Source: a virus
IMG/VR virus record: IMGVR_UViG_3300045988_077113
Direction: 5' to 3' (one strand)
DNA length: 50,745 nt
The notes beneath the pieces were generated by a model, which saw only the letters and a program-made list of their open reading frames with translations, was not told the DNA's origin and searched no databases. Positions within the stretch are counted from its first letter, which is position 1. Each line of letters starts with the position of its first letter. Shown in pieces: positions 4,221-50,745 of this stretch. The translations under genes and the position numbers were made by a program.

Positions 4221-4226
4221 ATAGGG

Positions 4227-4326: not shown

Positions 4327-4686
4327 CTACTGAATCAGCCCTTTAATTAAGGCCAACTTGTAAATGTGCTTACAAGGTAAGTGATCGGCTTTGAACGTGC
4401 TACACTGGCACATTCCCAGGCCACACCAGACGTCTTCCTGGTCGTCCGGCGCCTTCATCCTGGCGAAACACTTCTTTTCACTTTCAAAGTGAACGGAAAT
4501 GTCTTCTTCTTTTGCCTGGCGAAGTTTTTCTTTTTGGCCCGGCCGCTGGTGGACTTCATCGGCCCACCGGTGAAACGGCGCTTCGTCGCGTTCTTTTCTC
4601 TTTTGCCATTTCAAGTATATATGGATCTTCCAGGCCCACACGGCCAGGAAGGCGATCACACCGCCGACGGCGATCTTTACGATCAT
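4327..4686 (-). CDS. Membrane-anchored SWIM zinc-finger protein
   Basis: N-terminal TM helix (IAVGGVIAFLAVWAW). C-terminal CQC-x10-CKH matches the SWIM pattern CxCxnCxH. SD ggaaggggtgactgaATG. Confidence 0.6.
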   Translation of the reverse strand: MIVKIAVGGVIAFLAVWAWKIHIYLKWQKRKERDEAPFHRWADEVHQRPGQKEKLRQAKEEDISVHFESEKKCFARMKAPDDQEDVWCGLGMCQCSTFKADHLPCKHIYKLALIKGLIQ

Positions 4687-4780
4687 TCAGTCACCCCTTC
4701 CATAACTTACCGCTATACCTTCGTTTCCGTTAAACTTATAATGACTTAGCCCGGCCTTTTCAGGAAAAGGGGTGGTGCTA

Positions 4781-4909
4781 ATGAAGAAAATTAAATACAT
4801 AGAGTACAAGAGTCGTCGCGTCTACGCGATATATTACGCAAGTTGTCAAGCAATGTATTATAATTTAAGGTTCAACGGAAGGACGAAGATATACTTGTTG
4901 ATCTGGTAG
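4781..4909 (+). CDS. Possible small Tyr/Lys/Arg-rich protein (42 aa)
   Basis: Strong SD aaaaggggtggtgctaATG. It is short and sits between minus-strand genes. Confidence 0.25.
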   Translation: MKKIKYIEYKSRRVYAIYYASCQAMYYNLRFNGRTKIYLLIW

Positions 4910-4940
4910 CTTTTTAAGTAAAGGCCGGGTGGTTTTACAC

Positions 4941-5393
4941 CTAGCCCGTTTCTTTGTTCCGTTCTGGTTCGACCGGCGGAAATTCCTTTTCCAAGTCTTC
5001 CGGTGTCTTCGGCACATCGCCGAACAAGTCTTCGTCCATTACTCCGGTTTCTACCACATTATAAAAGAAATCTCTTACCGTCTGGCGCTGTTCGGCGTCT
5101 AATTTCAAATACTGGTAAACCAGATTATAACTGAAATCATCAAGCCCGAATTCCTTTTTTAATTGTTCCATTGTAGAAGAAGGCGTTTCAATAAACATTT
5201 TCCCTTCCCCAGTCCGAAGCCATTCTTCCGATACACTGAATGTATTACATATATCAAGTATCGTTCTATCAGAAGGATTTCTTTTACCTACTTCGATTAA
5301 AGAAATAGAATTCCTTTTCAGATTAAGCATTTCGGCAAAATCCGCTTGACTCAATCCTTTAGCTTCACGAACTTCTTTGATTCGTGCGTTCAC
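4941..5393 (-). CDS. XRE-family HTH repressor (CI-like)
   Basis: N-terminal HTH (GLSQADFAEMLNLKRNSISLIEVGKRNP). GTG start with SD aaaggaagtgataaaGTG. Adjacent to the operator/promoter cluster. Confidence 0.85.
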   Translation of the reverse strand: MNARIKEVREAKGLSQADFAEMLNLKRNSISLIEVGKRNPSDRTILDICNTFSVSEEWLRTGEGKMFIETPSSTMEQLKKEFGLDDFSYNLVYQYLKLDAEQRQTVRDFFYNVVETGVMDEDLFGDVPKTPEDLEKEFPPVEPERNKETG

Positions 5394-5416
5394 TTTATCA
5401 CTTCCTTTCTGACATC

Positions 5417-5445
5417 AATATAATACATAAATGCTTACTTGTCAA
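5417..5445 (-). promoter_or_regulatory. Repressor-gene promoter (TTGACA-17-TATATT on minus strand)
   Basis: The -35 element lies inside operator half-site 5432..5447. Confidence 0.55.
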
Positions 5446-5523
5446 CAAGGAAAGTTTTATTTTTATGCAAAAAGGTGTTGACAAGTAAGCAATATGGTGT
5501 TATTGTATGATTACAAGTTAGCA
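5432..5523. promoter_or_regulatory. Operator cluster of the lysis/lysogeny switch
   Basis: TGCTTACTTGTCAACA (5432..5447) and its exact reverse complement TGTTGACAAGTAAGCA (5476..5491). A third related site ACAAGTTAGCA is at 5513..5523. Confidence 0.65.
5478..5506 (+). promoter_or_regulatory. Rightward early promoter (TTGACA-17-TATTGT, with TGt extended -10)
   Basis: Read directly. Overlaps operator 5476..5491. Confidence 0.55.
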
Positions 5524-5592
5524 ATGACTTGCAAACAAAAAGGCGCCGCCCGGTGACACGGACGACGCGCTGAATGAAGAAGGGTTTTCTGA

Positions 5593-5769
5593 TTACTTGA
5601 ACCCATAGAAATAAGTGCAACCGCACTTTTCGCATGGCTTCAGATAACCGAAGCGGATATCTTCTGAAACTGGTTTTACATTCTGAACGTGTTCGTTGCA
5701 CTTGTCACAGATGTAATCGCCAGGCTTCACTTCAAGAAAACCTTCTTCTTTCGGAATGACGTAAATCAT
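5593..5769 (-). CDS. Small zinc-ribbon protein (58 aa)
   Basis: Internal ATG of track ORF 5593..6282 with SD ggaaagggggcttcgaaATG. Two CxxC pairs (CDKC, CEKC). Confidence 0.5.
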   Translation of the reverse strand: MIYVIPKEEGFLEVKPGDYICDKCNEHVQNVKPVSEDIRFGYLKPCEKCGCTYFYGFK

Positions 5770-5829
5770 TTCGAAGCCCCCTTTCCTATGAACTAGATCG
5801 GGGCCGGGTGGGCTGGCCCTGATAGGTTC

Positions 5830-5858
5830 ATTATAAAGGGGAAGACTTCGAAAATCAA
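5830..5858 (-). promoter_or_regulatory. Leftward promoter (TTGATT-17-TATAAT on minus strand)
   Basis: Read directly. Upstream of the zinc-ribbon gene and convergent with promoter 5478..5506. Confidence 0.5.
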
Positions 5859-5878
5859 TCAGAAAGGGGGCCGTATTT

Positions 5879-6043
5879 ATGGCAAACACCACCACAGACA
5901 AAAACGTCACGATGGTTCGCAAGGAAGACAAGAACTTCATTCGTTCCATGATGTCACTTCCCCAGGATAAGAAAATTCTGATCCAGGGAATTCTGATCGG
6001 CCTGGAACTGCAAGAGAAACAGACCGCAACGGCGGCCAGATAA
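5879..6043 (+). CDS. Small hypothetical protein (54 aa)
   Basis: ATG preceded by cagaaagggggccgtattt. Too short for the ORF track. Confidence 0.4.
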   Translation: MANTTTDKNVTMVRKEDKNFIRSMMSLPQDKKILIQGILIGLELQEKQTATAAR

Positions 6044-6126
6044 GGCCGCCAGCACTTCGACATATAGCCAGGAAGCCGACTGCAATCGGCGGCTGATGTT
6101 GGAAATAAGCGAAAGGAAAATTGAAT

Positions 6127-6999
6127 ATGGATAACTTTAGAATCTATGACACAATGTTCCGGTTCAATAACGAAACCGAACGACCTTCGGGCGGATGGCG
6201 ACGGAACCAAAAATTCGTTCACGACGCGTATTTTTGGAAAATTCTTAATATGCTGAAAGACGAAGGCTTCGACGTACACCACGACGAAAGCGTTTCGAAG
6301 ATAATTCGAAGGAATTACATCAAAGGAAAACGAAGGGACTTAAAATTCAAGGCCCAGCGATTCCCGGCCGGATTCGAAATTGTTTTCTATCAGGACATTG
6401 TCCACGAAAACCCACACGGCGGTTTTTATGATTTTGATAAACGGCGAAAAATGCCGTACCTGATTGGGCTTCAATATGAAAAATATATGAACCTGATCGT
6501 AAAGAAAATAAAAAGCCTTGTGGAAGTTAAAGACAGATCCAGCATAAAGACAAAGACAGCGGAAGAATGGGTAAAAGCGCGGTACGTTGAATCGTGCCAC
6601 TATCCGCAAACCGACATGAATTTTGATCTTCACGCGCTGGACGGGCAAGGCCACGAAGGCCAGTATGGCCTGGATCGCGACGGAAAAGAAATTCACAACG
6701 GCGACATTAAATACTTCCGTTACTGGTACGACGGCCGGGTATATCGCGGCCGGGTATATTACGATCTCAACATGAACTGGATTGTTATTTTAAACAAAAA
6801 GGACACACGCGTCATTTCTTGCTGGGAATTGTTCGATCTTACGCCGGAAGACAATCTTCACCGGATGAAGGATCCGACGCGATCAGAAGGTTATAAAAAG
6901 TATATGGCCCACCTGGAAAAACTGAAAGCCGAAAAGACAAAGGAACTTGTGATTGAGTTAAAACGCCGCGGCTATGCGGTGAAGATAGAAAGGAAATAA
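6127..6999 (+). CDS. Hypothetical early protein
   Basis: Long ORF. ATG at 6127 follows aaaggaaaattgaat. First gene of a tightly packed four-gene set. Confidence 0.6.
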   Translation: MDNFRIYDTMFRFNNETERPSGGWRRNQKFVHDAYFWKILNMLKDEGFDVHHDESVSKIIRRNYIKGKRRDLKFKAQRFPAGFEIVFYQDIVHENPHGGFYDFDKRRKMPYLIGLQYEKYMNLIVKKIKSLVEVKDRSSIKTKTAEEWVKARYVESCHYPQTDMNFDLHALDGQGHEGQYGLDRDGKEIHNGDIKYFRYWYDGRVYRGRVYYDLNMNWIVILNKKDTRVISCWELFDLTPEDNLHRMKDPTRSEGYKKYMAHLEKLKAEKTKELVIELKRRGYAVKIERK

Positions 7000-7003
7000 G
7001 CAA

Positions 7004-7291
7004 ATGACAAGAGAAAAATTCCGGTTCGCCGGACAGACCGTGAAGGTCAGAAACGAGATCCCGAAGTTCGGCGGCGCCGACTTCACAATCGAAGACTACT
7101 GGCAGAATGTGACCGGTGGCCTTTCCTGGATGGATAGCAACGGCAACCCGGCCGCGATGATGTACGCGATCCGTACCGGTTCCCAGGGCTTTGACGTCCC
7201 GATCGACAACGAAGTCGTTTATGGAAAGATCGGTTCACTTGGTTATCTGTTCCATGTGTCCGAACTGATTCTTCCGAAGGAAGGAGAATAA
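7004..7291 (+). CDS. Hypothetical protein (95 aa)
   Basis: ORF with SD. 4-nt gap to the upstream gene. Confidence 0.55.
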   Translation: MTREKFRFAGQTVKVRNEIPKFGGADFTIEDYWQNVTGGLSWMDSNGNPAAMMYAIRTGSQGFDVPIDNEVVYGKIGSLGYLFHVSELILPKEGE

Positions 7292-7295
7292 GCAC

Positions 7296-7535
7296 ATGGC
7301 ACAGGAAAAGGAAATCAAGAATTTTGTTTTCAACTACACCGACGGCACAAGCGAAACCGTCGAAAAAGGTTTCTTTTGCAAGATCAAAGACGAACCAAAC
7401 GGCGAAGCGACATTGAGTTTCGAAATGGTCGGCGTATCTGGAAAAGACCTGACACAAATTGTTCTGGGTTGCGTCGAGTTGGGCGCGCGCCTGGGAATGT
7501 TCGATAAAAAGGAAAGTGAGGAAATAAGCGAATGA
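7296..7535 (+). CDS. Hypothetical protein (79 aa)
   Basis: ORF with SD ggaaggagaataagcacATG. Its stop overlaps the next start. Confidence 0.55.
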   Translation: MAQEKEIKNFVFNYTDGTSETVEKGFFCKIKDEPNGEATLSFEMVGVSGKDLTQIVLGCVELGARLGMFDKKESEEISE

Positions 7536-8503
7536 GTAACACAAAGGAAAGCGTTGTTTTGAAGTATGACGACATGGGGATCCCGTCCATCATGTTAAAG
7601 GTTGAGAACACGGCGAAGACGCCGGAAGAAGCCGACAGAATGTTCTTCGTCCGTGGCGTTGAGTATGACGCCGTATATCTTAGCCGCTTCGTGAATTGCG
7701 TCCAGAACGGCCGCGCGTATTCGTTGCCGCTGATGGATCCGAAGGTATCTATCGACATGGACGACGCGATCGCGGCTTGTAGAAAGAAGGGCGCCGGCTG
7801 GCACTTAATGACCGCCATCGAATGGAACTGGTTAAGAAAGCACACGAACCAGGATGTCCACGGGAACACCTGGAAAGGACACTATTACAATGACGAAACC
7901 GAAGTCGGAATCAAAGTCCCGAACACCTGGCGGACGCTGACCGGATCCGGCCCGGCTTCCTGGTTCCATAACGGGAACAAAGAAACGGGCGTCGCTGATA
8001 TGGTCGGCCTGGTTTGGAAAATGATCGCCGGTATTCGCTTAAAGAATGGCGTCTTCCAGTATATGCCAGACAATGACGCGGCACACCCGGAAGCCGACCT
8101 TTCCGAAAGAAGCCAGGAATTCAAGGAAGTTTACATTGACGATCTTCCGTTCCCGGATCCGGTAAAGATTGGCCCAGGCGAAGACGGCTTGATGATTACA
8201 ACGTCCGGCGAAGTGGAAGGCTGGGACGCGGTAAGACGTCACGACGTGATTGTTGATCTTCCGGCGGACAAGATCCCGGAGATCTTAAAGGATTTAGGGA
8301 TCATCACCGAAGGCATGGACAAAGACGACGCCTGGTTCGCGGCTGACGCAGACCTGGACGAAGCGGTGTGTTACGTCTCTGGCGGTTACAACAACGCTTC
8401 GAACGCTGGCCCTTCCGCGTTGAGCTTGAGCAGCCCGCGTTCGTACGTCTGGTCGAGCATCGGCTTCTTCTCCGCTTGTTTAGGGGAACCTGTTATCCGG
8501 TAA
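7532..8503 (+). CDS. Second (remote) DGR target protein, C-type-lectin/FGE-like fold, paralog of 43147..44208
   Basis: Full-length similarity to the fibre-module target (for example RFVNCVQNGRAYSLPLMDPK vs KFINCIVDGLAYSWPLVDPK, and TGSGPASWFHNG vs TGSGPATWFHDG). The C-terminus contains VR2. Confidence 0.85.
   Translation: MSNTKESVVLKYDDMGIPSIMLKVENTAKTPEEADRMFFVRGVEYDAVYLSRFVNCVQNGRAYSLPLMDPKVSIDMDDAIAACRKKGAGWHLMTAIEWNWLRKHTNQDVHGNTWKGHYYNDETEVGIKVPNTWRTLTGSGPASWFHNGNKETGVADMVGLVWKMIAGIRLKNGVFQYMPDNDAAHPEADLSERSQEFKEVYIDDLPFPDPVKIGPGEDGLMITTSGEVEGWDAVRRHDVIVDLPADKIPEILKDLGIITEGMDKDDAWFAADADLDEAVCYVSGGYNNASNAGPSALSLSSPRSYVWSSIGFFSACLGEPVIR
8375..8478 (+). repeat. DGR variable repeat 2 (VR2)
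   Basis: 104 bp aligned by hand to TR 44737..44840. 11 mismatches, every one at a TR adenine. Confidence 0.9.
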
Positions 8504-8518
8504 CTGAAATCTGTATTC

Positions 8519-8532
8519 CGCGCGATAGCGCG
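8519..8532 (+). promoter_or_regulatory. GC hairpin with GATA loop downstream of VR2
   Basis: CGCGC-GATA-GCGCG begins 41 nt after the last VR2 base. A second hairpin GGCCC-GTAA-GGGCC is at 8539..8552. Confidence 0.6.
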
Positions 8533-8566
8533 TTAATTGGCCCGTAAGGGCCGGAAAGGTGGAACC

Positions 8567-9079
8567 ATGTATAAACCAACGATCAACACATCATACAAAG
8601 GCGTATGCAGATTATACGAAACGTGCGGCCGTTCTGATTACTGTTTACGCGCCGCCGAAGACATTCTTTTTATTCACGGCTTCGATATTAGAAAAACGCC
8701 TGGATATGAAGACCTTACATCCGATCAGAAAGACCTGTTCGCCGCCCATTGCGTAAAGTACATGAACAGCGTCGGAATGAACACAAAGATCACTATGTAC
8801 CCGAAAACGGTTCATTTCGTCCGCGAATATCAGTATTGTTCTTTCCCGGAATGGGACGAAGAAATCCAGAAAAACATTCGCTGGCAGATCGGCCGCGAAT
8901 GGATCATCTTAAAAGCCAACGGCCGGACAAGGAAGTTCAAAAAGTACCTGGACGACGACAGAACCGAAGCCGACATCGACAAGACGGTCACGAAGGAATT
9001 TGAATATCTTCGCGTTGACTGGCGGCAGAATGGAACGAATGTCTGGTTCCACGTTACGGCCCCGGATGAATACTATTAA
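8567..9079 (+). CDS. Hypothetical protein (170 aa)
   Basis: ATG at 8567 preceded by ggaaaggtggaacc. Confidence 0.55.
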   Translation: MYKPTINTSYKGVCRLYETCGRSDYCLRAAEDILFIHGFDIRKTPGYEDLTSDQKDLFAAHCVKYMNSVGMNTKITMYPKTVHFVREYQYCSFPEWDEEIQKNIRWQIGREWIILKANGRTRKFKKYLDDDRTEADIDKTVTKEFEYLRVDWRQNGTNVWFHVTAPDEYY

Positions 9080-9367: not shown

Positions 9368-9598
9368 ATGTCAATCGTTAGAAATACAAGGGAAGCCCCG
9401 TATTACATAGACGGAATCACAAAAGCAACGGATCCGTTCTGGAAAGTCTATTGTACTTGTGGTTTCACGTTCCTTTCGTGCATTTCAAACGGCAAGTGTC
9501 CGAAATGTGGGCGCGTGGAAGGTAAACGAATGTTAGGCGATAGAACTTTCGAAGAAGTCGTCGCGGAACGCGGACAGCCGCGGCCGCTGGAAGAATAA
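9368..9598 (+). CDS. Small zinc-ribbon protein (76 aa)
   Basis: Contains CTC...CPKCG. SD ggggaaacgtgaagaaATG. Confidence 0.5.
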   Translation: MSIVRNTREAPYYIDGITKATDPFWKVYCTCGFTFLSCISNGKCPKCGRVEGKRMLGDRTFEEVVAERGQPRPLEE

Positions 9599-9685
9599 AT
9601 CAGAATAAATCAGAGTTTATCAGAGTAAATCCGACTTTATCAGAGTTTATCAGAGTTTATCAGAGTTTATCAGAGTAAATCAGAG
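9596..9685 (+). repeat. Nine tandem 10-bp iterons (WWWATCAGAG), tubC-like centromere
   Basis: Exact 10-bp period: TAAATCAGAA, TAAATCAGAG, TTTATCAGAG, TAAATCCGAC, TTTATCAGAG x4, TAAATCAGAG. Immediately upstream of the wHTH + tubulin gene pair. Confidence 0.8.
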
Positions 9686-9703
9686 AAAAAAGGCGGTGAA
9701 ACT

Positions 9704-9961
9704 TTGAACAGACTAGGCTTTATCGTTTTGTCGATCCTTTCCCAGAATGGGGCGACGAACAAATTATCTTCGATGTCGGTTCAGGAGATTTCCGACACGG
9801 AAGAATTCGGTTATAAGCCGAACACAATCTTCAAAAAAATCAAGGAATTCGAAGACGCCGGATATATCGGCCGCGGCTTGAAGGAAGGCCGGGCGGACAC
9901 GTTCTTCATCACGGACACCGGACGGGAATTCCTGGAAGGGGCGAAGCATGAAACGAAGTGA
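9704..9961 (+). CDS. tubR: Small winged-helix DNA-binding protein, TubR-like centromere binder
   Basis: 85 aa with a wHTH pattern (VQEISDTE...NTIFKKIKEFEDAGYIGRG...FFITDTG). TTG start after aaaaaaggcggtgaaact. Position is between the iterons and the tubulin gene. Confidence 0.6.
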   Translation: MNRLGFIVLSILSQNGATNKLSSMSVQEISDTEEFGYKPNTIFKKIKEFEDAGYIGRGLKEGRADTFFITDTGREFLEGAKHETK

Positions 9962-10026
9962 CGCCAGAACAGAAACGACAACCGGACGAAAAACGTCCGA
10001 TAATACCACGAAGGGAGAATCAGAAC

Positions 10027-11061
10027 ATGAAAAATAAAATTGCTTTTGTAGCGGTCGGCCAGGCCGGCGGCAACATTGGACAGCTTTTCGAAGATCGGGG
10101 CTTTAATGTCCTTTACATCAACACGTCCCAGGAAGACCTTGACACCCTGGAACACGCAAAATATAAATACCACATTCCGGGCGGTGAAGGTTGCAATAAG
10201 AACCGCCGGAAGGCGAAACAGCTTGTGATCGACGACTTCGACCGTATCGCGGCAGAGATCGAAACCAAAATCAAGGCAGATCTGACGTTCGTTATCTTCG
10301 CCAGCGGCGGCGGAACCGGTTCAGGAGCCGGCCCGATGTTGATTGACCTTTTAATCGACGAAGGCCGCGCCATCGGAGCGATCACGATTGTTCCGGGGCA
10401 GAATGAAAGCGTGAAGGCGCATATCAATTCTTACGACTGTTTTTCAGAGTTGACAGAAATCGCCGGAACGGCCGCTTGCTTCATCCTGGACAACGACCGC
10501 GCGGAAAAATTGTCAATCAATACTTCCTTCGTGGACGACTTCTGTTCGTTCCTGGAAGTGCCGGAGAAACACAAGAGCGTGAAGGGCAATATCGACAAGG
10601 CCGAAATCATGGAGACACTAAGCGCCCACGGAATGGCCCTTGTGACGTCCAGAAAGGCCCAAAACAGCGCCGAAACGATTAAGGCTATACAAGATAACCC
10701 TTACGCCCCTATCGAGGGCGACAGAGCCGTTAAATACATCACAGCGTCATTGTCGGACGGTGTGACCATGCCGGAACTGGAAAAAGCGATCGGAACCCCG
10801 ATCGACACCTTCCAGACCTTCAATGACGAAGGAACCACAATTTGTTGTATTTCGGGGCTGACTTATCCACAATCACGTCTGGATATTGTGTATAAAAAGG
10901 TGGATGAAAACAAAGAGGTGATCGAAAAGAACCTGACGGCGACCAGAGAAACCCGGATGAAGAAATCAATTAACTTCCTGGACGACCTGGAACCGCCGAA
11001 GAAGGCGGCAGAAGCCCCGAAGCCAAAGTCAAAACGGGACATTATGAGCAAGTATTTATAA
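10027..11061 (+). CDS. tubZ: Tubulin/FtsZ-superfamily GTPase, TubZ-like
   Basis: Tubulin signature GGGTGSG (FASGGGTGSGAGP) and N-terminal VGQAGGNIG phosphate-binding loop. SD gaagggagaatcagaacATG. Confidence 0.8.
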   Translation: MKNKIAFVAVGQAGGNIGQLFEDRGFNVLYINTSQEDLDTLEHAKYKYHIPGGEGCNKNRRKAKQLVIDDFDRIAAEIETKIKADLTFVIFASGGGTGSGAGPMLIDLLIDEGRAIGAITIVPGQNESVKAHINSYDCFSELTEIAGTAACFILDNDRAEKLSINTSFVDDFCSFLEVPEKHKSVKGNIDKAEIMETLSAHGMALVTSRKAQNSAETIKAIQDNPYAPIEGDRAVKYITASLSDGVTMPELEKAIGTPIDTFQTFNDEGTTICCISGLTYPQSRLDIVYKKVDENKEVIEKNLTATRETRMKKSINFLDDLEPPKKAAEAPKPKSKRDIMSKYL

Positions 11062-32892: not shown

Positions 32893-35800
32893 AATCGGTG
32901 GAAAAATCCAAAGTTCACTCACGAAATCGGTTAGTGGAGTTAATAACAAATTAGATTCAATCGGAAAAGCCGCAAAAACGGCCGCGAAGATAGCAACAGC
33001 CGCCTTCGCGGCCGTAAAAATTGGCGATTTTGTCAAAGACGCGGTGGACACATATTCGGAATTTAACCAGGCAATGGCCGAAACGGCCGGTATTGCCGGA
33101 GCGACCGAAGATGAATATAAACAGCTTCAAGCGGCGGCCCAGGAGATGGGAAAACGCACGACTAAGACAGCCACGGAAGCCGCCCAGGCATTAGGTTATA
33201 TGAGTTTGGCCGGCTGGAACGTGAATGATTCTATTTCGGCGCTGGAACCGGTTCTCCGCTTGTCGGAAGCTACTTCGATGGATCTAGCCACCTGTTCGGA
33301 CTTGGTAACTGACTCAATGAGTGCGTTGGGCCTGGGCGTTGACGATCTGACAAATTACTTGAACGTCGCTGTCCAGGCGAATAACAAATCGAACACAACC
33401 GCGCAAGCCTTAATGGAAGCGATGATCGGTTGTGGTGGCGCCGCAAAATCGGCCGGTATGGACTACAAGCAGACCGCCGCGGCCCTGGGTATCCTTGCGA
33501 ACAATGGTATCAAGGGAGCGGAAGCCGGAACGGCTTTGAACTCTATGCTGGTTCGAATGACAACGAAAGACGTCGCGCAGAAAGCATTTAAGGAACTGGG
33601 CGTTTCTATTTACGATAGTTCCGGCGCAATGCGGAATATGCAAGATATTCTTGTGGAATTAAACGGCGCGATGTCTGGATTGTCCCAGGAACAGAAAAAC
33701 AACTACATGGCGGCAATCGCCGGCACGAACTATTATACCCAGTTCGGCTATTTGTTGGAAGGCGTCGCAGAAGGCGCAGACGGGGCCGCGTCCACCTGGA
33801 CACAGCTAACGGAAGCCTTCGATAATTCCGACGGCGCCCTGGACGCAATGGCCAACACCATGACGGACACGTTACCGGGCGCAATAGCGATTTTTGGTTC
33901 GGCGGTCGATGACGCTAAAATTCGATTGTGCGAGGTATTTGCGCCACTTGCAAAGGACGCAATCAAAGGGGTTGCTGATGTGATCCCGTCGATTACTGAC
34001 CGCGCGGTCGGCGTTGCACAGTCATTTTATAACACAGTCGTTCCGGCGGCGGAGAATTTCGCGAAGAAAGCAATCGCGGCCTTTAACCAGGCGAAGCCAG
34101 CTTTTGACGAAATTCGCACGAAAGCCACGGACGCATTTATTTTTTTACGTGATACGGGAATCACGGCCTTCGAGAATATCAAGGCGAAAATTGAAGAAAA
34201 CAAGCCAGCGATCGACAAAGTGATCGCGGTCGCCCTGGATCTGAAAGACAAATTGTTCCAGGCATGGGAGATAGTGAAACCGGCCATTTCCCAAATTGCA
34301 ACGGTCGCAATCCCGGCCGTTATCGGGGCCATGATGAAAGTTATCGGGGCCGCGGCGACAGTTTATCAGAAATTAGATGAATGGGGACTTCTTATCCCGA
34401 TTATTACCGGAATCGCCGGAGCAGTTGCGGCGGTGAAGATGGTTGAATTCGCAAAGGACACTATGAACACGGTAAAAGCCGTCAAGGCCCTTGTGGTAGT
34501 GTTTGGCGCGGAAAAGAAAGCTATGATCGTGAACCTTGCGTTGAAAGCAAAGGACAGGCTGGAAACGGCCTATCTCTACGCATTATACGCAAAGGACGCA
34601 GTTGTTAAGGGAATCAGCACAGCGGCCACATGGGCGCAGACGGCGGCCTTGACAGCCTGGAACGCGATTTGTGCGGTCGGAACGGCCGTTACTTCGGCGC
34701 TGGGCGTGGCTTTCGCATTTCTAACAAGTCCGATTGGACTTGTATGTGTGGCAATCGCGGCGGTTATTGCGATCGGCGTGTTGCTATATAAAAACTGGGA
34801 CACCGTGAAAGAAAAGGCGTCACAGTTGGGCGACTGGATCGTCGGCGCATTTAACAACCTGAAAGAAAAGGCTTCGGCCGCAATTCAGGAATTCGCAGAC
34901 AAATTCCCGGTTGCTTTTGCGTTCCTTTCGTCTGTATTCGAAAGTTGGAAACAGACGATCACAAATATCTTTTCGGGCGTGAAACAGGTCTTCCAGGGCG
35001 TCGTTCAGTTTATTAGCGGCGTCTTCACGGGTGACTGGTCGAAGGCCCTTGACGGACTGAAAAATATCTTTTCAGGTGCATTTCGCGCCCTGTCTTCGCT
35101 GGCGCTGGCGCCCCTGAACGCGCTGAAAGGCGTCGTCGTGGGTGCTTTTAACGCGATCGACACAGCGACAGGCGGAAAGTTATCTGTAATCAAAAACAAG
35201 GTTTCAGACGCGTTTTCGTCCATCAAAAAAACAGCCGGATCCATCATGCAAGCGGCGAAAGATACGATTTCTGAAAAGCTATCGAATATCAAGTCCGCGT
35301 ATGAGGAACACGGCGGCGGAATTAAGGGAATCGCCGCGGCGGCAATCGAGGGCGTAAAAGGCTACTACACGGCCGGATATACCTTCATAGATAAATTAAC
35401 GGGCGGAAAATTGACCGCGATCAAGGAGAAATTCTCCAAAATCTGGTCGCAGATTTCCGAAAAGGTAAGTGAAGCCTGGACGACGATAAAAAATATCGTG
35501 AAAGTCGGGGTTATGCTGATCGGCGAAATCATTTCGGCCGCTTTTCAGATTATCACGCTTCCGTTCCAGTTTATCTGGCAGAACTGCAAGGACACGATCC
35601 TTTCAGCCTGGGAGTTTATCAAATCAACCGTTTCGGACGGAATTCAGAAGGTCAAAGACACGATTTCGTCTTTCCTTTCTCCGATCGTAAACGCGGTTTC
35701 GGGCGCCTGGTCGTCCGTAAAATCAGCCACAAGTTCGGCCTGGTCGGCGGTGAAATCCGCGACAAGTTCAGCCTGGACGGCGGCGACCGGTTATATTTCC

Positions 35801-36991
35801 GAAAAAATTAACGGCGCGAAACAGGTTGTTTCGTCCGTGACTTCAACGATCAAATCAACCGCTTCGGCGGCCTGGTCGTCCGTAAAATCAGCCACAAGTT
35901 CGGCTTGGTCGGCGGTATCGTCGGCAACAAACACAGCCTGGACGGCGGCAAGCGGCTATATTTCGAACAAAATTAACGCCGCGAAAGCGACCGTTTCTTC
36001 GGTTGCTTCATCCATTCGATCAACCGCTTCGGCGGCCTGGTCGGCGGTATCATCCGCGACAAATTCAGCCTGGACAACGGCGACGGGTTATATCTCAAAC
36101 AAGATTAACGCCGCGAAAGCGACAGTTTCTTTGGTTACTTCGTCCATCCGGTCAACCGCTTCGGCGGCCTGGTCGGCGGTGTCGTCTGCTACAAGTTCAG
36201 CGTTTGAAAATGTCCGGGCAACTATGAGCAACAAAATAAACACAGCGAAGGCGAATGTGTCGTCGGCATTATCGGGAATCCGTTCGGCCTTTTCTTCCGG
36301 CTTATCCGCCGCGAAGAACACGGTCACAAGTATTTTCGGGAATATCGTGTCGGCGATCAGTGGAAAGATGGAATCGGCGAAAAACGCCGTATCAAACGCG
36401 ATCGGCGCATTAAAAAGCAAATTCAACTTTTCCTGGAGCCTTCCAAAGCTGAAACTTCCGCACGTTTCTATTTCGGGCGGTTTTTCAATCAATCCGCCTT
36501 CTGTTCCCCATTTCGGGATCAGTTGGTATAAAAACGGTGGTATTTTAGACAAACCGACCATCTTCGGGGCAAGTGGAAACAACCTTTTGGGCGGCGGAGA
36601 AGCCGGCAAAGAAGCGGTTCTTCCGCTGACTGAATTGTGGTCGAATATGAAATCCATCGTCGCCGGAGTCGTCCAGGGCAACCAAAACGACGGCGCGGCT
36701 TCTATTTTCGACAGAATGAAACAGCTTGTCGGAATCCAGAGCAACGGCCAGCCGGCGGAATCAGTCACGAAACAGCTTTACAACAACGTGACAACCAGCA
36801 ACACAACCAACAAAACGAAGGAAGATAATTCTTCAACGGATAGTTCGAAATTTGTCTATTCGCCTTCGGTTGTGATCCAGGGCAACGCAAGCAAGGAAGA
36901 CGTGAACGAAGCCCTTGAAATGTCACAGCAGAAGTTTAATGAAATGATGGACAGATGGAAGAAGGGGAAGGAAAGGACTTCATTCGCATAA
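32858..36991 (+). CDS. Tail tape measure protein (1377 aa)
   Basis: Size, position, Ala-rich helical composition and internal repeats. TTG start after aaaggaagtgagcgaaa. Confidence 0.9.
35705..36300 (+). repeat. In-frame tandem repeats within the tape measure gene
   Basis: GCCTGG anchors at 35705, 35870, 36035 and 36167 give units of 165, 165 and 132 bp. An 11-aa AWSxVxSATxS sub-repeat is nested within them. Confidence 0.85.
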
Positions 36992-42798: not shown

Positions 42799-43154
42799 AA
42801 ATTATCGAAGCAAACGAAGGCCAGAAGATTTCCTATTCCACAACGAAAACCTGGCTGAACGTCGGCGATCAGATCATGCTGAATCTGAAAAAATACGAAG
42901 CCGACAACGACGTCCATATCGACATTACTTCGGATATGGCCGGCAACCTGGAAACCGGTGTCGGTCTTCTTTATGTGGCACAGGTGGACATTCCGGCCAG
43001 AGCCTACACAGAAGAAGAAATCCCGAACCCGGACTATTCCGAAGAAACAGAAAACAGCCAGAAAACAATTATCAAGCGCGATCCGGTTCCGTTCTCTATG
43101 GACAACGTGACCTTGACACTGTTCGCGCTGAAAGAAGGTGTAATCTATGAATAA
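42795..43154 (+). CDS. Hypothetical fibre-module protein (119 aa)
   Basis: ORF overlapping the start of the DGR target gene. Confidence 0.5.
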   Translation: MKIIEANEGQKISYSTTKTWLNVGDQIMLNLKKYEADNDVHIDITSDMAGNLETGVGLLYVAQVDIPARAYTEEEIPNPDYSEETENSQKTIIKRDPVPFSMDNVTLTLFALKEGVIYE

Positions 43155-44208
43155 TTACCAGTTTGACAGCCTGAAATTCGCCACGGAAGGATTGACTGGC
43201 GGCGGTTGTACCATTATTTCGGACGTCAAGGGCCTTCCGTCCTTTATGATCCCGTTTAATAAGCGCACAAACGCCCAGTTATTCGACGGCGGAAGCGAAA
43301 AGACACATTCGGCCTTTGTGGTTGACGATGTGGAATACAAGCGCTTCTTTTTTAGCAAATTTATTAACTGTATTGTGGACGGCCTGGCCTATTCCTGGCC
43401 GCTGGTGGATCCGAAAGCGTCCATCAATTACGACGCGTCACACGCGGCTTGTAATGCGAAGGGAACGGGCTGGCATTTAGCGTCAATCCCGGAACGTGCG
43501 GTCATTAACCATTTGATTTATAAATCCGGCTTTATTCCGCGCGGTAACACCCAGTACGGAAAACACCACACATACACTTACGAGGTGGGCGAGACAACCG
43601 CAACCGAAGGCGACGGATCAGGCGGAACAAGAACAACCAGAACCGCGACCGGATCCGGCCCGGCGACCTGGTTCCATGACGGAACGCGAAACGGTATCGC
43701 TGATTACGTGGGTGACGTCTGGAAATGGATGTCCGGCCTTAGAGTTTATAAAGGCGAAATCCAGATCTTCGTCGGCAACCTGGCCGCGAAGCAGGTTTCA
43801 CACCTTGCCGCGTCCACATATTGGAAGGCTATTCTTCCGAATGGTAGCCTGGTAGAACCTGGAACGCCTGGAACATTGAAATATACAAAGGATTTCAAGA
43901 TCGCAACTGATACCGGCGCGGCCGGCAGTACCTACACACCAAGTTTCGGAAATCTTGTGGCCGGAACCGGCGTGACAACGATCCCGGAGATCTTGAAGGA
44001 ATTATTCCTTGCACCGGTAAGCGGCGTCACACATACCGGCGGTTTTTGGATCAACAACGAAGACGAGCGCTTGCCGGTTGTCTCTGGCGGTTACAACTGC
44101 ACTTCGAACGCTGGCCCTTCCGCGTTGTACTTGCTCGGCCCGCGTTCGAACGTCTGGACGGACCTCGGCTTCTTCTCCGCTTTTATGGAGTTGGAATCTG
44201 CAATCTGA
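43147..44208 (+). CDS. DGR target protein 1 (Mtd-like receptor-binding candidate, C-type-lectin/FGE-like fold)
   Basis: Last gene of the fibre module. The C-terminal 40 codons are VR1. Paralog of 7532..8503. Confidence 0.9.
   Translation: MNNYQFDSLKFATEGLTGGGCTIISDVKGLPSFMIPFNKRTNAQLFDGGSEKTHSAFVVDDVEYKRFFFSKFINCIVDGLAYSWPLVDPKASINYDASHAACNAKGTGWHLASIPERAVINHLIYKSGFIPRGNTQYGKHHTYTYEVGETTATEGDGSGGTRTTRTATGSGPATWFHDGTRNGIADYVGDVWKWMSGLRVYKGEIQIFVGNLAAKQVSHLAASTYWKAILPNGSLVEPGTPGTLKYTKDFKIATDTGAAGSTYTPSFGNLVAGTGVTTIPEILKELFLAPVSGVTHTGGFWINNEDERLPVVSGGYNCTSNAGPSALYLLGPRSNVWTDLGFFSAFMELESAI
44063..44183 (+). repeat. DGR variable repeat 1 (VR1)
   Basis: 121 bp aligned by hand to TR 44720..44840. 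17 mismatches, all at TR adenines. Confidence 0.9.
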
Positions 44209-44224
44209 TAGCCGTGTTCTGTTT

Positions 44225-44244
44225 GGGGCTACGATAGTAGCCCC
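44225..44244 (+). promoter_or_regulatory. GC hairpin with GATA loop downstream of VR1
   Basis: GGGGCTAC-GATA-GTAGCCCC begins 42 nt after the last VR1 base and is followed by a T-rich run. Confidence 0.65.
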
Positions 44245-44277
44245 TATATTTTTGAAACACAAGAAAGGATTGCAACA

Positions 44278-44697
44278 ATGGGAAATATGCGAAGATACGG
44301 GGCGCCCGGAAATCCCGAAACCGACGAAGGACGGGAACAACGAAGCGGTCTGATAATTCTTCAAAGGTCAAAAGACCTTATGAAATATCTGTACACTTCC
44401 TTTGTGAAATATCCCAGAAGTGAAAAGCTGGGGTTTGTAGCAGACTATAAAAAGTGTCTGTTCCAATTCCTGATTCTTATAATCACGGCGCAAAAGAAGT
44501 ATTTCAAAAAGACGACACTTCAAGACGCGGACGTTCAGCTTGAATTATTGCGAATGTTCAATGATTTGTCGTATGACATGAAATTTGTAGACGAAAAGCG
44601 TTACATACTGGTTTCAGAAAAGTTATGTGAAATCGGGCGGCTACTCGGCGGCTGGATCCGATCACAAAAGGAAACCAGCACAACCGCCGGAAAATAA
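44278..44697 (+). CDS. avd: DGR accessory variability determinant (Avd, four-helix-bundle family)
   Basis: 139 aa, basic, helical. C-terminus EKLCEIGRLLGGWIRSQK. Position between the target gene and TR. Confidence 0.8.
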   Translation: MGNMRRYGAPGNPETDEGREQRSGLIILQRSKDLMKYLYTSFVKYPRSEKLGFVADYKKCLFQFLILIITAQKKYFKKTTLQDADVQLELLRMFNDLSYDMKFVDEKRYILVSEKLCEIGRLLGGWIRSQKETSTTAGK

Positions 44698-44719
44698 TTT
44701 CCGGTAGAGGGAACAGGTC

Positions 44720-44840
44720 AAAAACGCTTGCCGATTGTCTCTGGCAGTTACAACAACACTTCGAACGCTGGCCCTTCCGCGTTGAACTTGAACAACCCAC
44801 GTTCGAACGTCAGGACGAACATCGGCTTCTTCTCCGCTTA
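44720..44840 (+). repeat. DGR template repeat (TR)
   Basis: Non-coding copy of VR1/VR2. It carries A at every position where the VRs differ. Begins 23 nt after the avd stop. Confidence 0.9.
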
Positions 44841-45051
44841 TCCTTTTAGCCAGACGGGAAAGTTTACGGACTTTTCACAGTGCAAGAAAGGGAAAAGGGA
44901 TCTGTTTCAGTTCCGGCCATAGCGCCGGAGAAATTAAATTTGCTGATAATGCGGTTAGTACCTGGCGAAAGCCAGTGAAGGGCGTAACGATCAGTGCCGC
45001 GCCCACGCCGAAAGCAAGGGCGCACAATTCCAACGAAAGGAATTAACCACA

Positions 45052-46179
45052 ATGAAGACTTTCGACATTACGCACGAAGAAATCATCGACCCGTCGAACC
45101 TACTTGAAGCGGATCGCAACGCTTCCCAGGGCAAGCACAACCGCGACGAAAACTTGAAATTCTCCGCGCATAGGGAAGAAGAAATCATTGATCTCACGAA
45201 TCGACTAACATACTACCCGAAAGACGGGATCCCAGGGAATCCGCTTGAATCGTCCTATCGTGTCGGTAAGTACCGCATGAAACAGATTTATGAGCCGAAG
45301 CCCCGAATTATCATGGCTTTACAGTACCGGGATCGTGTCGTTCAATGGGCGTATTACCAGAAACTAAACCCTTTATTCGACCGGCAGTATATAACGCATA
45401 GTTACGGTTGCCGGAAGGGTAAGGGAACCGTCAAGGCAAGAAAACAGTTACAGATCTGGCTTCGGAAGGTCAACCGGAGTCCGAAACACTGGTACGTCTT
45501 AAAACTTGACATTGCAAAATACTTTTACCGCGTCGATCACGAAATCCTTATGAAGATCTTGAAAAAGCACATCAAGGACGAACTGATTCTTCGCGACCTG
45601 GATAAACTGATAAATTGCGAACATACCGCCTTCGGCCTTCCTTCCGGCGTCCAGCCGGAGTTGTGCAAGCAAGAAGACTGGTTATACAATCGCGGTATGC
45701 CGATCGGAAACCTGACAAGTCAAATGTTCGCGAACATTTACTTGAACGAATTGGATCAGTTTTGTAAACACGTTCTTCATATCGAAAAATATATTCGGTT
45801 TGTAGACGACGTGATCGCACTTTTTGACAGTAAGGAAAAGGCGTTCGCGGCAAGGGATGAAATCGAAAGATTTCTGAATGAGGAATTGCACCTTGAATTA
45901 AATAACAAGACATCAATCCGGCCGGCTTATCTTCCGGTAACATTTGTCGGCGCCCTTATTACGCCGCTGACAATCCGTGTTCGAAAATCGACACGACAAA
46001 GAATGTATCGCCGGATCCGGTTCATTCAGAAAATGTTTGAAATGGGCCGGCTTACATGGGAGAAAGTCAACAACACCATGCAAAGTTATTTCGGTCTGAT
46101 AAGCCACTTCACGGCCGGAAACCTTCTCCGAAAGATTATTGACGAATTTTCTTTCCGGGTTCCAGATAACAATTCATAG
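45052..46179 (+). CDS. DGR reverse transcriptase
   Basis: RT motifs PRIIMAL, SYGCRKGKG, LDIAKYF, the DGR-typical MPIGNLTSQMFANIYL, and catalytic YIRFVDDV. Confidence 0.9.
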   Translation: MKTFDITHEEIIDPSNLLEADRNASQGKHNRDENLKFSAHREEEIIDLTNRLTYYPKDGIPGNPLESSYRVGKYRMKQIYEPKPRIIMALQYRDRVVQWAYYQKLNPLFDRQYITHSYGCRKGKGTVKARKQLQIWLRKVNRSPKHWYVLKLDIAKYFYRVDHEILMKILKKHIKDELILRDLDKLINCEHTAFGLPSGVQPELCKQEDWLYNRGMPIGNLTSQMFANIYLNELDQFCKHVLHIEKYIRFVDDVIALFDSKEKAFAARDEIERFLNEELHLELNNKTSIRPAYLPVTFVGALITPLTIRVRKSTRQRMYRRIRFIQKMFEMGRLTWEKVNNTMQSYFGLISHFTAGNLLRKIIDEFSFRVPDNNS

Positions 46180-46234
46180 CCTGGCATTTTACCAGGTTAT
46201 TTTTGTCTAATAATCAGGAAAGGGGGTTCACGGT

Positions 46235-46498
46235 ATGGAAGCAGAATTTGAAAGAGAAGTTCTTGATCGACTTATCAAGATTGAAGGAAAACTTGACGGT
46301 TACAATAACGCAAAAGTCAAGACCTATGAGAACGAAAAAGAAATTCTTCGAATCAAAAGCGATCTTGAAGACGTCCAGAAGACCGTCACAGATCTTACTG
46401 AATCGAATAAATGGCTTTTCCGAACTGTCGTGGCGGCTATTATCGTCGCGGCCATCGGACTTTTAACAACCATTGTTCGAACCGGCGTCGGATTATAA
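46235..46498 (+). CDS. xhlA: XhlA-family lysis-associated membrane protein
   Basis: Coiled-coil N-terminus and a single C-terminal TM (VVAAIIVAAIGLLTTIV). Located upstream of holin and endolysin. Confidence 0.65.
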   Translation: MEAEFEREVLDRLIKIEGKLDGYNNAKVKTYENEKEILRIKSDLEDVQKTVTDLTESNKWLFRTVVAAIIVAAIGLLTTIVRTGVGL

Positions 46499-46536
46499 CT
46501 GAAAACTATTTTTACACCAGAAGGGAGAAAAACAAC

Positions 46537-48683: not shown

Positions 48684-48726
48684 TTTACAACTTACACTTT
48701 ACAGTTTATAAAATGTATGATACAAT
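48684..48726 (+). promoter_or_regulatory. Tandem promoters; the first shares the operator-in-spacer architecture
   Basis: TTTACA-17-TATAAA (48684..48712), with TACACTTTACAGTTTA spanning the spacer and the first two bases of the -10. TTTACA-17-TACAAT follows at 48698..48726. Confidence 0.55.
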
Positions 48727-48898: not shown

Positions 48899-48916
48899 AT
48901 GCGTTTATGGGATATA

Positions 48917-48966
48917 TTCTGATATTCTCTGACAAACTCTGATTTATTCTGATTTACTCTGATCCT
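48917..48966 (-). repeat. Second cluster of five 10-bp iterons, inverted relative to 9596..9685
   Basis: CTGAT/CTGAC at 48919, 48929, 48939, 48949 and 48959. Reverse complements include exact TAAATCAGAG and TAAATCAGAA units. Confidence 0.75.
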
Positions 48967-49670: not shown

Positions 49671-49703
49671 TTTGATTACCTCTTTTCTTTATCTTATGTT
49701 TAT

Positions 49704-49732
49704 ATTATACACTATAAAGTGTAATATGTCAA
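49704..49732 (-). promoter_or_regulatory. Consensus promoter TTGACA-17-TATAAT with embedded operator
   Basis: On the minus strand the -35-to-operator stretch CTTGACATATTACACTTTATAGTGTAT is identical to promoter 1290..1318. Operator at 49708..49723. Confidence 0.7.
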
Positions 49733-49796
49733 GAATAAATGTAAAGAAAATGATTAAAAACAGAAAGAAATATTTTCTATAATACACGGAAAAGTG

Positions 49797-50070: not shown

Positions 50071-50115
50071 TTTAACCTTTCTACTGGATGTTTATTTCCT
50101 TTGCTTTATGATATT

Positions 50116-50144
50116 ATAATACACTATAAAGTGTAAAATGTCAA
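50116..50144 (-). promoter_or_regulatory. Promoter TTGACA-17-TATTAT with embedded operator
   Basis: Operator TACACTTTATAGTGTA (minus-strand reading) at 50120..50135. Confidence 0.7.
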
Positions 50145-50191
50145 GTATAAATGTAAAGAAAACGATTAAAAAAGAAAGAAATATTTTCAAC

Positions 50192-50498: not shown

Positions 50499-50714
50499 AT
50501 GTATAATAAAATAGATTTGCGCGAAGTTCCGGCTGAAAGGCTGAAAGAAATTAGTCTGGATCTGGTAGACATTGACGTCAAGGCGCCAGAATTCGAACCG
50601 AACAGACAGTTCTATTTCATGGCGAAAGCCAGGGACTACGTGAAGCGGAAGTCCGCTGAATTAGGACGTCCCATGACCTTTTTTACTCAAACATTCGGGT
50701 GTCCGACTGTTTAA
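50499..50714 (+). CDS. 71-aa ORF resembling the N-terminal extension and first motif of a MiaB-type methylthiotransferase (gene fragment)
   Basis: It ends ELGRPMTFFTQTFGCPTV*. TFGC is where the MTTase domain (xTxGCQMN) starts. This rests on recollection, not a search. Confidence 0.4.
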   Translation: MYNKIDLREVPAERLKEISLDLVDIDVKAPEFEPNRQFYFMAKARDYVKRKSAELGRPMTFFTQTFGCPTV

Positions 50715-50715
50715 G
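50686..50715. promoter_or_regulatory. Candidate attP core: near-perfect 30-bp palindrome
   Basis: CTCAAACATTCGG-GTGT-CCGACTGTTTAAG with 11/13 arm matches. Weaker T-rich symmetry extends to about 50673..50727. Confidence 0.35.
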
Positions 50716-50745
50716 AAAACAAGACGTTGCAATCTATTTGAAAAT
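50691..50745. repeat. Terminal direct repeat, identical to 1..55
   Basis: Exact identity read directly. Confidence 0.95.

Follow-up and report, generated by a model that had tools for sequence, protein, structure and literature searches.

A diversity-generating retroelement with two adenine-diversified targets in a temperate phage of human-gut Lachnospiraceae

Introduction

The virus record IMGVR_UViG_3300045988_077113 of the IMG/VR database, a stretch of 50,745 nt that is called the window throughout this text, contains at positions 43147-46179 a complete diversity-generating retroelement (DGR) of a temperate phage. We consider this element to be currently active, with a probability of about 0.93. 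Its components are a target gene ending in a variable repeat (VR1), the gene avd for the accessory variability determinant, a template repeat (TR), a structured non-coding spacer and a reverse transcriptase (RT) gene; a second target gene with its own variable repeat (VR2) lies far away in the early region of the same genome. The phage lysogenises human-gut Lachnospiraceae, and its genome is circular with a size of ~50.7 kb.

The element is a well-supported case of a known system, namely a canonical Avd-type phage DGR, and not a new system. Earlier publications already describe phage DGRs with two targets, second targets of a non-structural kind and conserved RNA elements of DGRs. Three points may nevertheless be useful: the link between the RT-14 RNA motif and a DGR RNA, a covariation-backed duplex that brackets the TR, and the conservation of a target paralogue in the early region. 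The analysis reported here shows the parts of the cassette, the adenine specificity of the repeats, the hypervariation of the targets in the population around an invariant TR, the protein homologies and the covariation of the RNA.

Adenine-specific differences between TR and VR

The gene order and coordinates proposed in the initial annotation of this DNA were confirmed from the sequence and its open reading frames (ORFs). The plus strand carries, in this order, target gene 1 (43147-44208, 353 aa), avd (44278-44697, 139 aa), TR (about 44720-44840) and the RT gene (45052-46179, 375 aa). An ungapped comparison of TR with VR1 (44063-44183 as first delimited, plus strand) at an offset of 657 reproduced the 17 mismatches counted earlier by hand: 17 of 121 nt differ, and all 17 differences fall on TR adenines. 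Given that TR holds 30 adenines in 121 nt, the hypergeometric probability of this outcome is 5e-13. The example that had been quoted for a mutated segment (AACAACCCAC in TR against CTCGGCCCGC in VR) is correct, and the claimed identity of the 18 bp at the 3' end also holds, since the adenine-free 18-nt block TCGGCTTCTTCTCCGCTT is the same in TR, VR1 and VR2. A substantial number of non-adenine mismatches, named in advance as the observation that would speak against a DGR, did not appear in VR1 when the alignment was made computationally.

The location of the TR stood, but its exact ends did not. A comparison of 17 VR1 alleles from different assemblies, described in the next section, sharpened the boundaries: the functional tract that is transferred spans ~44725-44839, with the mutagenised adenines at 44734-44821, and the tract replaced in VR1 spans ~44068-44182, corresponding to codons 307-346 of target gene 1. 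All 17 alleles agree at the positions of TR adenines 44720-44723 and 44840; there VR1 has C and G at the positions matching TR 44721-44722 and T at the one matching 44840. The three mismatches at 44721, 44722 and 44840 are fixed and are therefore flank differences that chance on TR adenines. Position 44724 shows only A or G, a synonymous change, and hence is ambiguous. Within the conservative core 44725-44839, 13 of 13 VR1 mismatches lie at adenines (P = 5e-11). Read in the VR frame, the TR gives KRLPIVSGSYNNTSNAGPSALNLNNPRSNVRTNIGFFSA, with eight AAC codons. According to codon analysis, its 25 adenines yield ~1e15 DNA variants and ~6e13 protein variants, and no codon within the tract can mutate to a stop.

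A repeat search of the window revealed another copy of the repeat at 8363-8477; both strands were searched for a third VR and none was found, which leaves two VRs in the window. VR2 (8375-8477, plus strand) is homologous to TR 44737-44839, and 10 of its 10 core mismatches occur at TR adenines (P = 5e-8). It forms the 3' end of target gene 2 (7532-8503, plus strand, 323 aa), a paralogue of target gene 1 (35% protein identity, E 2e-51) located in the early region between the repressor gene and the tubR/tubZ genes; its product is devoid of the ~13 N-terminal residues of target 1. At the 5' end of the TR, the homology of VR2 is 12-14 nt shorter than that of VR1 (8375, corresponding to 44737), so TR adenine 44734 can diversify VR1 but not VR2; the first variable site of VR2 corresponds to TR 44746.

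Hypervariable targets and invariant TR across assemblies

A read pile-up over VR1 had been proposed for detecting hypervariability at adenine sites; a comparison across assemblies was made in its place. It included 16 independent RT-centred loci: ten metagenome contigs from ENA, three contigs from IMG/VR and three isolates, Lachnospiraceae bacterium AM48-27BH, Blautia glucerasea and Jutongia huaianensis. Fifteen of these loci encode exactly the RT protein of the window and the locus of Blautia glucerasea one that is 99% identical; the TR is 100% identical in all 16. In the face of this constancy, the 17 VR1 sequences (16 loci and the window) comprise 16 distinct alleles. Polymorphism affects 25 of 30 TR-adenine sites and 2 of 92 other sites (Fisher P = 7e-19 for the 17 alleles), and the polymorphic adenine sites of VR1 typically show three or four bases. 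In a 14-sequence alignment of the window and 13 loci, column variability peaks sharply in 44000-44199. The adenine sites of VR1 are thus hypervariable around an invariant TR, as the proposed check anticipated.

The same pattern was observed for VR2, for which ten loci centred on the early-region gene were compared with the window. All 11 alleles are distinct; 23 of 24 adenine sites are polymorphic against 7 of 81 non-adenine sites (P = 5e-16), and six of these seven non-adenine sites come from one divergent locus. The diversification of target 2 is of the same strength as that of target 1.

The assembly collection lists the exact RT protein under 3,062 of its indexed blocks, on contigs that are mostly 2-200 kb and reach up to 560 kb. 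This abundance and the sizes of the RT-bearing contigs identify the phage as a widespread integrated prophage. The three isolates named above, whose loci come from GTDB genomes, are assigned to different Lachnospiraceae genera and have an RT 99-100% identical to that of the window together with an identical TR. This occurrence across genera suggests either that the phage can lysogenise an unusually broad range of hosts or that it was transferred recently.

Reverse transcriptase and Avd

The Avd protein scores 90.9 bits with the NCBIfam model NF033474 (DivGenRetAVD), above the equivalog cut-off of 80, and it also matches PF22296 (bAvd) and phrog_3206. Its nearest PDB matches, the Avd protein Bbp7 of phage BPP-1 (4dwl) and 8ub7_B, are its only meaningful solved relatives. 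The RT, a member of the RVT_1 family, has as its best solved relative bRT from the BPP-1 DGR (8ub7_A, E 3e-30), followed by group II intron RTs (2e-20) and retron-type RTs (1e-15). Of the two motifs that had been ascribed to it, IGNLTSQMFANIYL is present at aa 218-231 (with IGNLTSQ at aa 218-224), whereas the supposed YxDD is in fact FVDD at aa 250-253, within YIRFVDD. The protein accordingly carries both signatures of DGR-type RTs, [I/L/V]GxxxSQ and a catalytic xxDD.

Assignment to the DGR-type RTs, against which a placement outside the DGR clades would have told, was examined through the repeats that accompany related RTs, in place of a curated DGR tree. RT relatives were taken from IMG/VR and GTDB genomes, and a simple repeat finder was applied to them. 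At the loci where the finder identified paired repeats, over a range of RT identity from 83% to 33%, these form a VR/TR pair located just 5' of the RT gene with mismatches confined to the adenines of the RT-proximal copy. The relatives with adenine-specific pairs include one genome of Saccharibacteria and one of Nanoarchaeota, and the assignment is upheld. When the 3-kb cassette was compared with 50,697 phage records of GenBank, nothing beyond two short, weak RT matches was retrieved, and no close relative.

Structured spacer RNA and helices that bracket the TR

The 211-nt spacer between TR and RT (44841-45051) had been regarded as non-coding and probably part of the DGR RNA, and this interpretation gained support from folding, an Rfam motif and covariation. 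The structured portion occupies 44841-44995 on the plus strand. The sole Rfam match in 43000-46500 is RT-14 (RF02921) at 44840-44993 on the plus strand, with full coverage of the 144-nt model, E 4e-5 and a score of 46.1 bits, which is slightly under the gathering score. In eight relatives, the close relative L014 (51.5 bits) and seven more distant ones, RT-14 is found above the gathering threshold (48.3-68.6 bits), and these matches start 0-2 nt from the independently found TR end.

Two conserved helices flank the TR. The first, P1 (44841-44847 paired with 44887-44893), begins on its 5' side 1-2 nt past the end of the TR/VR homology. When 16 spacers belonging to two RT clades were folded by RNAfold with no constraints, P1 always emerged as an outer helix of 6-7 bp, which encloses a 2-bp helix and a tetraloop stem-loop of 8-10 bp; in the window this stem-loop has 8-9 bp and a UACG tetraloop (44857-44876). 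The 3' strand of P1, at spacer positions ~48-54, is directly followed by an invariant AAAGG (44894-44898). The second helix is a long-range duplex between GGAACAGGTC (44710-44719), the 10 nt immediately 5' of the TR, and GATCTGTTTC (44899-44908). An ungapped search recovered it as 10-14 bp at spacer positions ~56-74 in 14 of 16 relatives. The TR is exactly the stretch between these two conserved helices, which would explain where the TR/VR homology starts and stops if they are priming and stop elements as in BPP-1.

The long-range duplex is supported by covariation in a plain MAFFT alignment of 15 sequences, with pairing in 93.3% of cells and compensatory changes in 5 pairs; its covariation score of 0.389 compares with 0.238 for shuffles (0 of 500 reach it) and with at most 0.152 for slid controls. 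A local GGA...UCC hairpin was considered in place of this duplex and rejected, since its loop nucleotides covary with the segment 5' of the TR. For the spacer helices, a MAFFT alignment of ten near relatives shows pairing in 98.1% of cells and compensatory changes at 9 of 22 pairs; none of 500 shuffles reaches these values, and slid controls have no more than 65% of cells paired. The consensus structure of RT-14 is kept, with P1, P1a, P1b and P2 98% paired and P3 recovered by RNAfold. RNAalifold on a MAFFT alignment mixing both RT clades returned only a 5-pair local hairpin, with the distant clade misaligned. The covariance model built from the near-relative alignment located the distant clade where it was expected (E 0.001-0.08), and this clade was re-aligned by structure-aware alignment from the same model. 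The resulting combined alignment has compensatory changes at 19 of 21 pairs and pairing in 93.6% of cells, figures that lean towards the structure because the alignment was fitted to the model. Thermodynamics alone would not have revealed the structure, as the fold of the whole region 44700-45060 is barely more stable than shuffles (z = -1.8).

Further elements follow downstream of the long-range duplex: the hairpin P2 (44912-44929), found by RNAfold and in relatives, an A-rich single strand (44930-44942), and P3 (44943-44994), a long stem folded by RNAfold that is interrupted by two interior loops and capped by GAAA. Two more hairpins precede the RT gene. One, at 44999-45023, is folded by RNAfold in the window and near relatives. 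The other, ATTCC-AACGAAA-GGAAT at 45027-45043, encloses a Shine-Dalgarno-like AAAGGA 9 nt 5' of the RT start and is kept in near relatives; through it, the translation of the RT may be linked to the folding of the RNA. All these elements lie on the plus strand. RNA elements of this kind have been predicted in 207 of 278 Avd-type DGRs, Bacillota included (Handa et al., bioRxiv 10.1101/2023.10.23.563531), and the RNA architecture of the window is hence expected and not new.

Target-side hairpins and flanks

Each VR is followed on the plus strand by a GC-rich hairpin with a GATA loop. The hairpin GGGGCTAC-GATA-GTAGCCCC (44225-44244) starts 41 nt past the VR1 end at 44183 and is also terminator-like; the hairpin CGCGC-GATA-GCGCG (8519-8532) starts 41 nt past the VR2 end at 8477. 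A hairpin at equal distance is found in all relatives of both clades. Its stem covaries (GGGCCGC, CTCTCCCAC, AGAGGCTAC, CCACGC and others; the VR2 hairpin of the locus L041, for instance, reads CCACGC-GATA-GCGTGG), whereas its loop is G(A/G)(T/G)A in all relatives and is closed by an invariant C-G pair. Phage DGR targets have been reported to carry a GC stem of 7-10 bp with a 5'-GRNA loop, of which the structure and not the stem sequence is required (PMC3240598). The cis elements typical of the target side of a DGR, an invariant VR 3' end and then a GC-rich inverted repeat with a GRNA loop, are present here, and the VR1 hairpin is a candidate target-recognition hairpin or cruciform.

The flank between VR1 and its hairpin (44184-44224, plus strand) spans the stop codon of target gene 1 (44206-44208) and contains the motifs G.A.CTG and C.G...TCTG. 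The columns of both motifs are invariant in 14 of 14 sequences, which include the flanks after VR1 and after VR2 (8478-8518) and both RT clades. They are equally invariant in coding sequence, as at VR1, and in sequence past the stop codon, as at VR2 and in the distant clade. These motifs may represent an additional target-recognition signal at the DNA level.

Target proteins and their genomic context

Target 1 has no Pfam match. The structural check that had been suggested, namely whether the protein adopts a C-type lectin fold with the VR residues on a binding face, was carried out with an AlphaFold2 (AF2) model built from 37 homologues (mean pLDDT 95), and the model matches DGR variable proteins. 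The best PDB match in Foldseek is TaqVP (5vf4; E 3e-39, TM 0.89, 36% identity), followed by TvpA and Mtd, and phmmer aligns target 1 with 5vf4 across its full length (E 5e-54). The segment encoded by VR1 (aa 307-346) aligns without gaps with the TaqVP region that contains the VR (aa 341-381). In the crystal structure of TaqVP, the VR is a solvent-exposed binding site (PDB 5VF4).

Upstream of the cassette, genes were annotated for two baseplate proteins, a wedge protein and a P2 gpI-like one, together with four small ORFs of unknown function; downstream of it, genes for XhlA/holin and a glucosaminidase-amidase endolysin. The neighbours on both sides thus make target gene 1 the final gene of the tail/baseplate module. 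The site had been described as lying between tail-fibre and lysis genes, of which the lysis genes are indeed found 3', whereas the upstream genes are baseplate and tail genes, none of them annotated as a tail fibre. From homology and gene position, target 1 is plausibly, and we think probably, a receptor-binding protein.

Target gene 2 resides in a different context. In the early region, a serine recombinase (2132-4138, minus strand) and a helix-turn-helix repressor (4941-5393, minus strand) are followed by plus-strand genes of unknown function, target gene 2, a tubR-like regulator and TubZ (9958-11061). This setting in a rightward early operon is kept in relatives in which target 2 is only 69% identical. 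No function could be assigned to the neighbours of target gene 2 from Pfam, NCBIfam or PHROGs; the ORF directly downstream (8537-9076, 180 aa) probably has its true start at the ATG at 8567. In a locus with an RT 73% identical to that of the window (IMGVR_UViG_3300045988_008683, positions 1461-7388), the avd-TR-RT block is inverted and lies ~3 kb downstream of a target 2 homologue, in the place of tubR/tubZ. The position of the cassette relative to the early-region target is therefore not fixed.

As a tentative idea, to which we give rather low credence, target 2 could be a diversified binder that is not part of the virion, is made early in infection or from the prophage, and acts inside or on the lysogen. 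Conceivable roles for it may include phage-host or phage-phage conflict, or a recognition function tied to the adjacent tubR/tubZ maintenance module.

Alternative explanations

Several points count against the reading of this region as an active DGR that diversifies a receptor-binding protein. Activity is deduced from differences between assemblies, which reflect diversification together with selection over an unspecified time. The RT-14 score of the window, at 46.1 bits, is 2 bits under the gathering score of 48.1 and does not reach the threshold. The stem of the VR2 hairpin has 5 bp, fewer than the 7-10 bp reported for phage DGRs, and both hairpins are located ~40 nt from the VR end, outside the reported 4-34 bp (PMC3240598). 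The functions proposed for the RNA helices follow an analogy with a single solved complex of a distant DGR. Finally, a location of target 1 in the virion and its binding to a receptor would be predictions from homology and gene position.

The last point bears on the alternative with the most in its favour, according to which the DGR is active but target 1 is an adhesin for mucus, host glycans or other cells, or a non-virion protein, and not a binder of the host receptor. Its incorporation into the virion would have to be assumed from context; the protein is small (353 aa), it matches only phrog_2889 (E 2e-93), a family of unknown function to which target 2 also belongs (E 4e-61), and no fibre-like N-terminal domain was detected in it by Pfam or in the AF2 model. 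Moreover, its paralogue is encoded in a non-structural region, and other roles have been proposed for C-type lectin DGR targets of phages (PMC10743442). Nevertheless, we regard this alternative as unlikely, given that target gene 1 is the final gene of the baseplate/tail module directly ahead of the lysis genes, the classical position of a receptor-binding protein gene (cf. Mtd in BPP-1), and that the protein has the fold of Mtd and TaqVP.

It is far less probable that the DGR is a fossil whose TR/VR pattern records past activity on targets that are no longer diversified. From one genome alone, past activity could not be separated from present activity. However, all ORFs of the cassette are intact, the RT protein has stayed identical in all but one of the RT-centred loci (and 99% identical in that one), and the TR is invariant while 16 of 17 VR1 and 11 of 11 VR2 alleles differ, with nearly all adenine sites of the tract polymorphic, typically in three to four bases, and far less variable flanks.

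Finally, the proposition that the repeats are ordinary paralogues or duplicates diverged by point mutation or recombination, and that the RT belongs to another class (group II intron, retron or defence RT), can be practically dismissed: the top-scoring NCBIfam RT model is indeed that of group II intron RT/maturases, with weaker matches to Drt and retron models, but all these scores are far under their cut-offs (116 bits against 300 for TIGR04416), the nearest solved RT is the DGR enzyme bRT, an Avd is present, the mismatches are confined to adenines (P = 5e-13 for VR1), and the Rfam scan of 43000-46500 found no group II intron RNA family and no other intron or retron RNA family, RT-14 being the only match.

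Comparison with known DGR systems

The prototype DGR of phage BPP-1 (mtd-avd-TR-brt) shares with the element described here the order of target, avd, TR, spacer and RT, the adenine-specific transfer from TR to VR, the VR at the C-terminus of a tail-module protein with a C-type lectin fold, and a GC hairpin with a GRNA loop 3' of the VR. The likeness extends to the succession of elements in the spacer, when set against the RT-Avd-RNA complex of BPP-1 as resolved by cryo-EM (Handa et al.): a UNCG-tetraloop stem-loop, a primer strand, a duplex with the segment upstream of the TR, a short hairpin, an A-rich single strand and a long interrupted stem. Spacer coordinates are nearly equal, with the primer strand at Sp47-56 in BPP-1 and at ~48-54 in the window. 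The 'cPRT Stop' duplex of BPP-1 (avd:Sp59-70) is the proposed counterpart of the duplex 44710-44719/44899-44908, the 'Avd-binding' stem with its UNCG tetraloop is paralleled by the UACG stem-loop, and the stem-loop with A-minor adenosines, the 'Thumb Ring' and the 'bRT-binding' stem occur in the same order as P2, the A-rich strand and P3.

The two systems also differ in several respects. The RT of the window aligns with bRT over only part of its length (E 3e-30), and its Avd is matched with no better than E 8e-4. The spacer motif is RT-10 in BPP-1 and RT-14 in the window. The TR/VR homology of the window stops at the priming helix and lacks an extended pair of initiation of mutagenic homology sequences (IMH/IMH*). 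The hairpin stands 4 nt from the VR in BPP-1 and ~40 nt from it here. There is one target in BPP-1, whereas the phage of the window, whose host is a Gram-positive anaerobe of the gut, has two.

Target 1 is homologous over its full length to TaqVP of a Thermus aquaticus prophage (PDB 5VF4), and the two share the C-terminal position of the VR, AAC-rich TR codons and invariant last residues. TaqVP has 9 variable residues, compared with eight AAC codons and seven other codons in the window where a change of adenine alters the amino acid, and the phage of the window possesses a second, likewise diversified paralogue. One TR serving two VRs is also a feature of the Bacteroides phage Quimbyvirus and of other two-target gut phage DGRs (tentaclin phages). 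Such two-target phage DGRs have been described (PMC10743442), and in Quimbyvirus one target belongs to the structural module and the other to a non-structural region (PMC8008677). In contrast to these phages, the window has two paralogous targets that share one topology, an RT encoded by a single ORF with no frameshift, and a second target situated in an early operon next to tubR/tubZ, apparently not in a defence island; the host belongs to the Lachnospiraceae.

In the RT-14 motif (RF02921) as defined by Weinberg et al. 2017, a 'single-stranded' linker corresponds to the strand that pairs here with the TR-upstream segment outside the motif. That study described the motifs RT-1 to RT-19 near RT genes; only RT-10 was tied to a DGR, in the TR-brt spacer of BPP-1, and a role for the others was speculated. 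A 2026 preprint (PMC12934698) reported prophages of gut Bacillota whose DGR lies between their structural module and their lysis module. An identity of our phage with the 'Hodor-associated' prophages of that preprint was considered but not established; their sizes (39.5-47.2 kb) and target architectures differ.

Proposed mechanism of diversification

We infer priming and termination roles for the two TR-bracketing helices, a role of the target-side hairpins, and receptor binding by target 1. In the proposed mechanism, an RNA covering ~44700-45000, which takes in the TR flanked by the end of avd and by the structured spacer, would be made and then bound by the RT (45052-46179) and Avd (44278-44697). 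Within this RNA the TR would be bracketed by the long-range duplex (44710-44719/44899-44908) and P1 (44841-44847/44887-44893). If the roles known from BPP-1 apply, P1 would be the template:primer duplex, with priming from an adenosine in the invariant GGGAAAAGG; the UACG-capped stem-loop at 44857-44876 would bind Avd, and the long-range duplex would stop cDNA synthesis. The cDNA is expected to be faithful except opposite 24-25 TR adenines, most of them within the 8 AAC codons. It would then replace the homologous tract at VR1 or VR2, in the C-terminal part of the genes at 43147-44208 and 7532-8503, each VR presumably being marked on its 3' side by the conserved flank and the GC-rich GATA-loop hairpin. 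The predicted outcome is ~1e13-1e14 variants of the ligand-binding face of a TaqVP-like C-type lectin fold, displayed in the case of target 1 most likely by a receptor-binding protein.

Other features of the phage genome

The ends of the window (1-55 and 50691-50745) are identical over 55 nt, which indicates a circularly closed assembly of ~50,690 bp; integrated copies of the phage are found in bacterial contigs of 200-560 kb. Eight tandem 10-bp iterons (AGAGTTTATC-like) at 9582-9694 are located upstream of a gene for an 85-aa regulator (9704-9961) and of a gene for a TubZ-type tubulin (9958-11061; PF00091 and TubZ_C_3). Together they resemble a tubC/tubR/tubZ module for partition; the phage bears a serine integrase as well. 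Part of the iteron array recurs in inverted orientation at 48904-48963. An element of ~31-43 nt with a TTGACA-like box and the palindrome ACACTTTATAGTGT is present in at least four copies in both orientations around the genome junction (1286-1328, 48684-48714, 49694-49736 and 50106-50148) and looks like a set of promoter/operator sites. At 35711-36260, 5' of the tail genes, a unit of 132-165 nt is repeated in tandem as three to four diverged copies with 75-80% identity, presumably encoding a repeated protein domain.

Conclusions

These results leave the current understanding of DGRs unchanged. The value of the element lies mainly in its being an exceptionally clean natural example, with alleles of both targets that differ between nearly all assemblies examined. 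For RT-14, an orphan motif of Rfam, a concrete role emerges, since the spacer that contains it is part of the DGR RNA, and the RNA architecture of BPP-1, including the long-range duplex that brackets the TR, is extended with covariation support to a distant clade of Bacillota phages. If target 2 is a non-virion protein, one DGR would drive the joint evolution of a receptor-binding protein and a non-structural effector, and would do so in a very common prophage of Gram-positive gut bacteria. Because cultured lysogens exist, the phage offers a tractable system for studying DGR-driven tuning of host range in Gram-positive gut anaerobes, and it allows the role of a second target outside the structural module to be tested.

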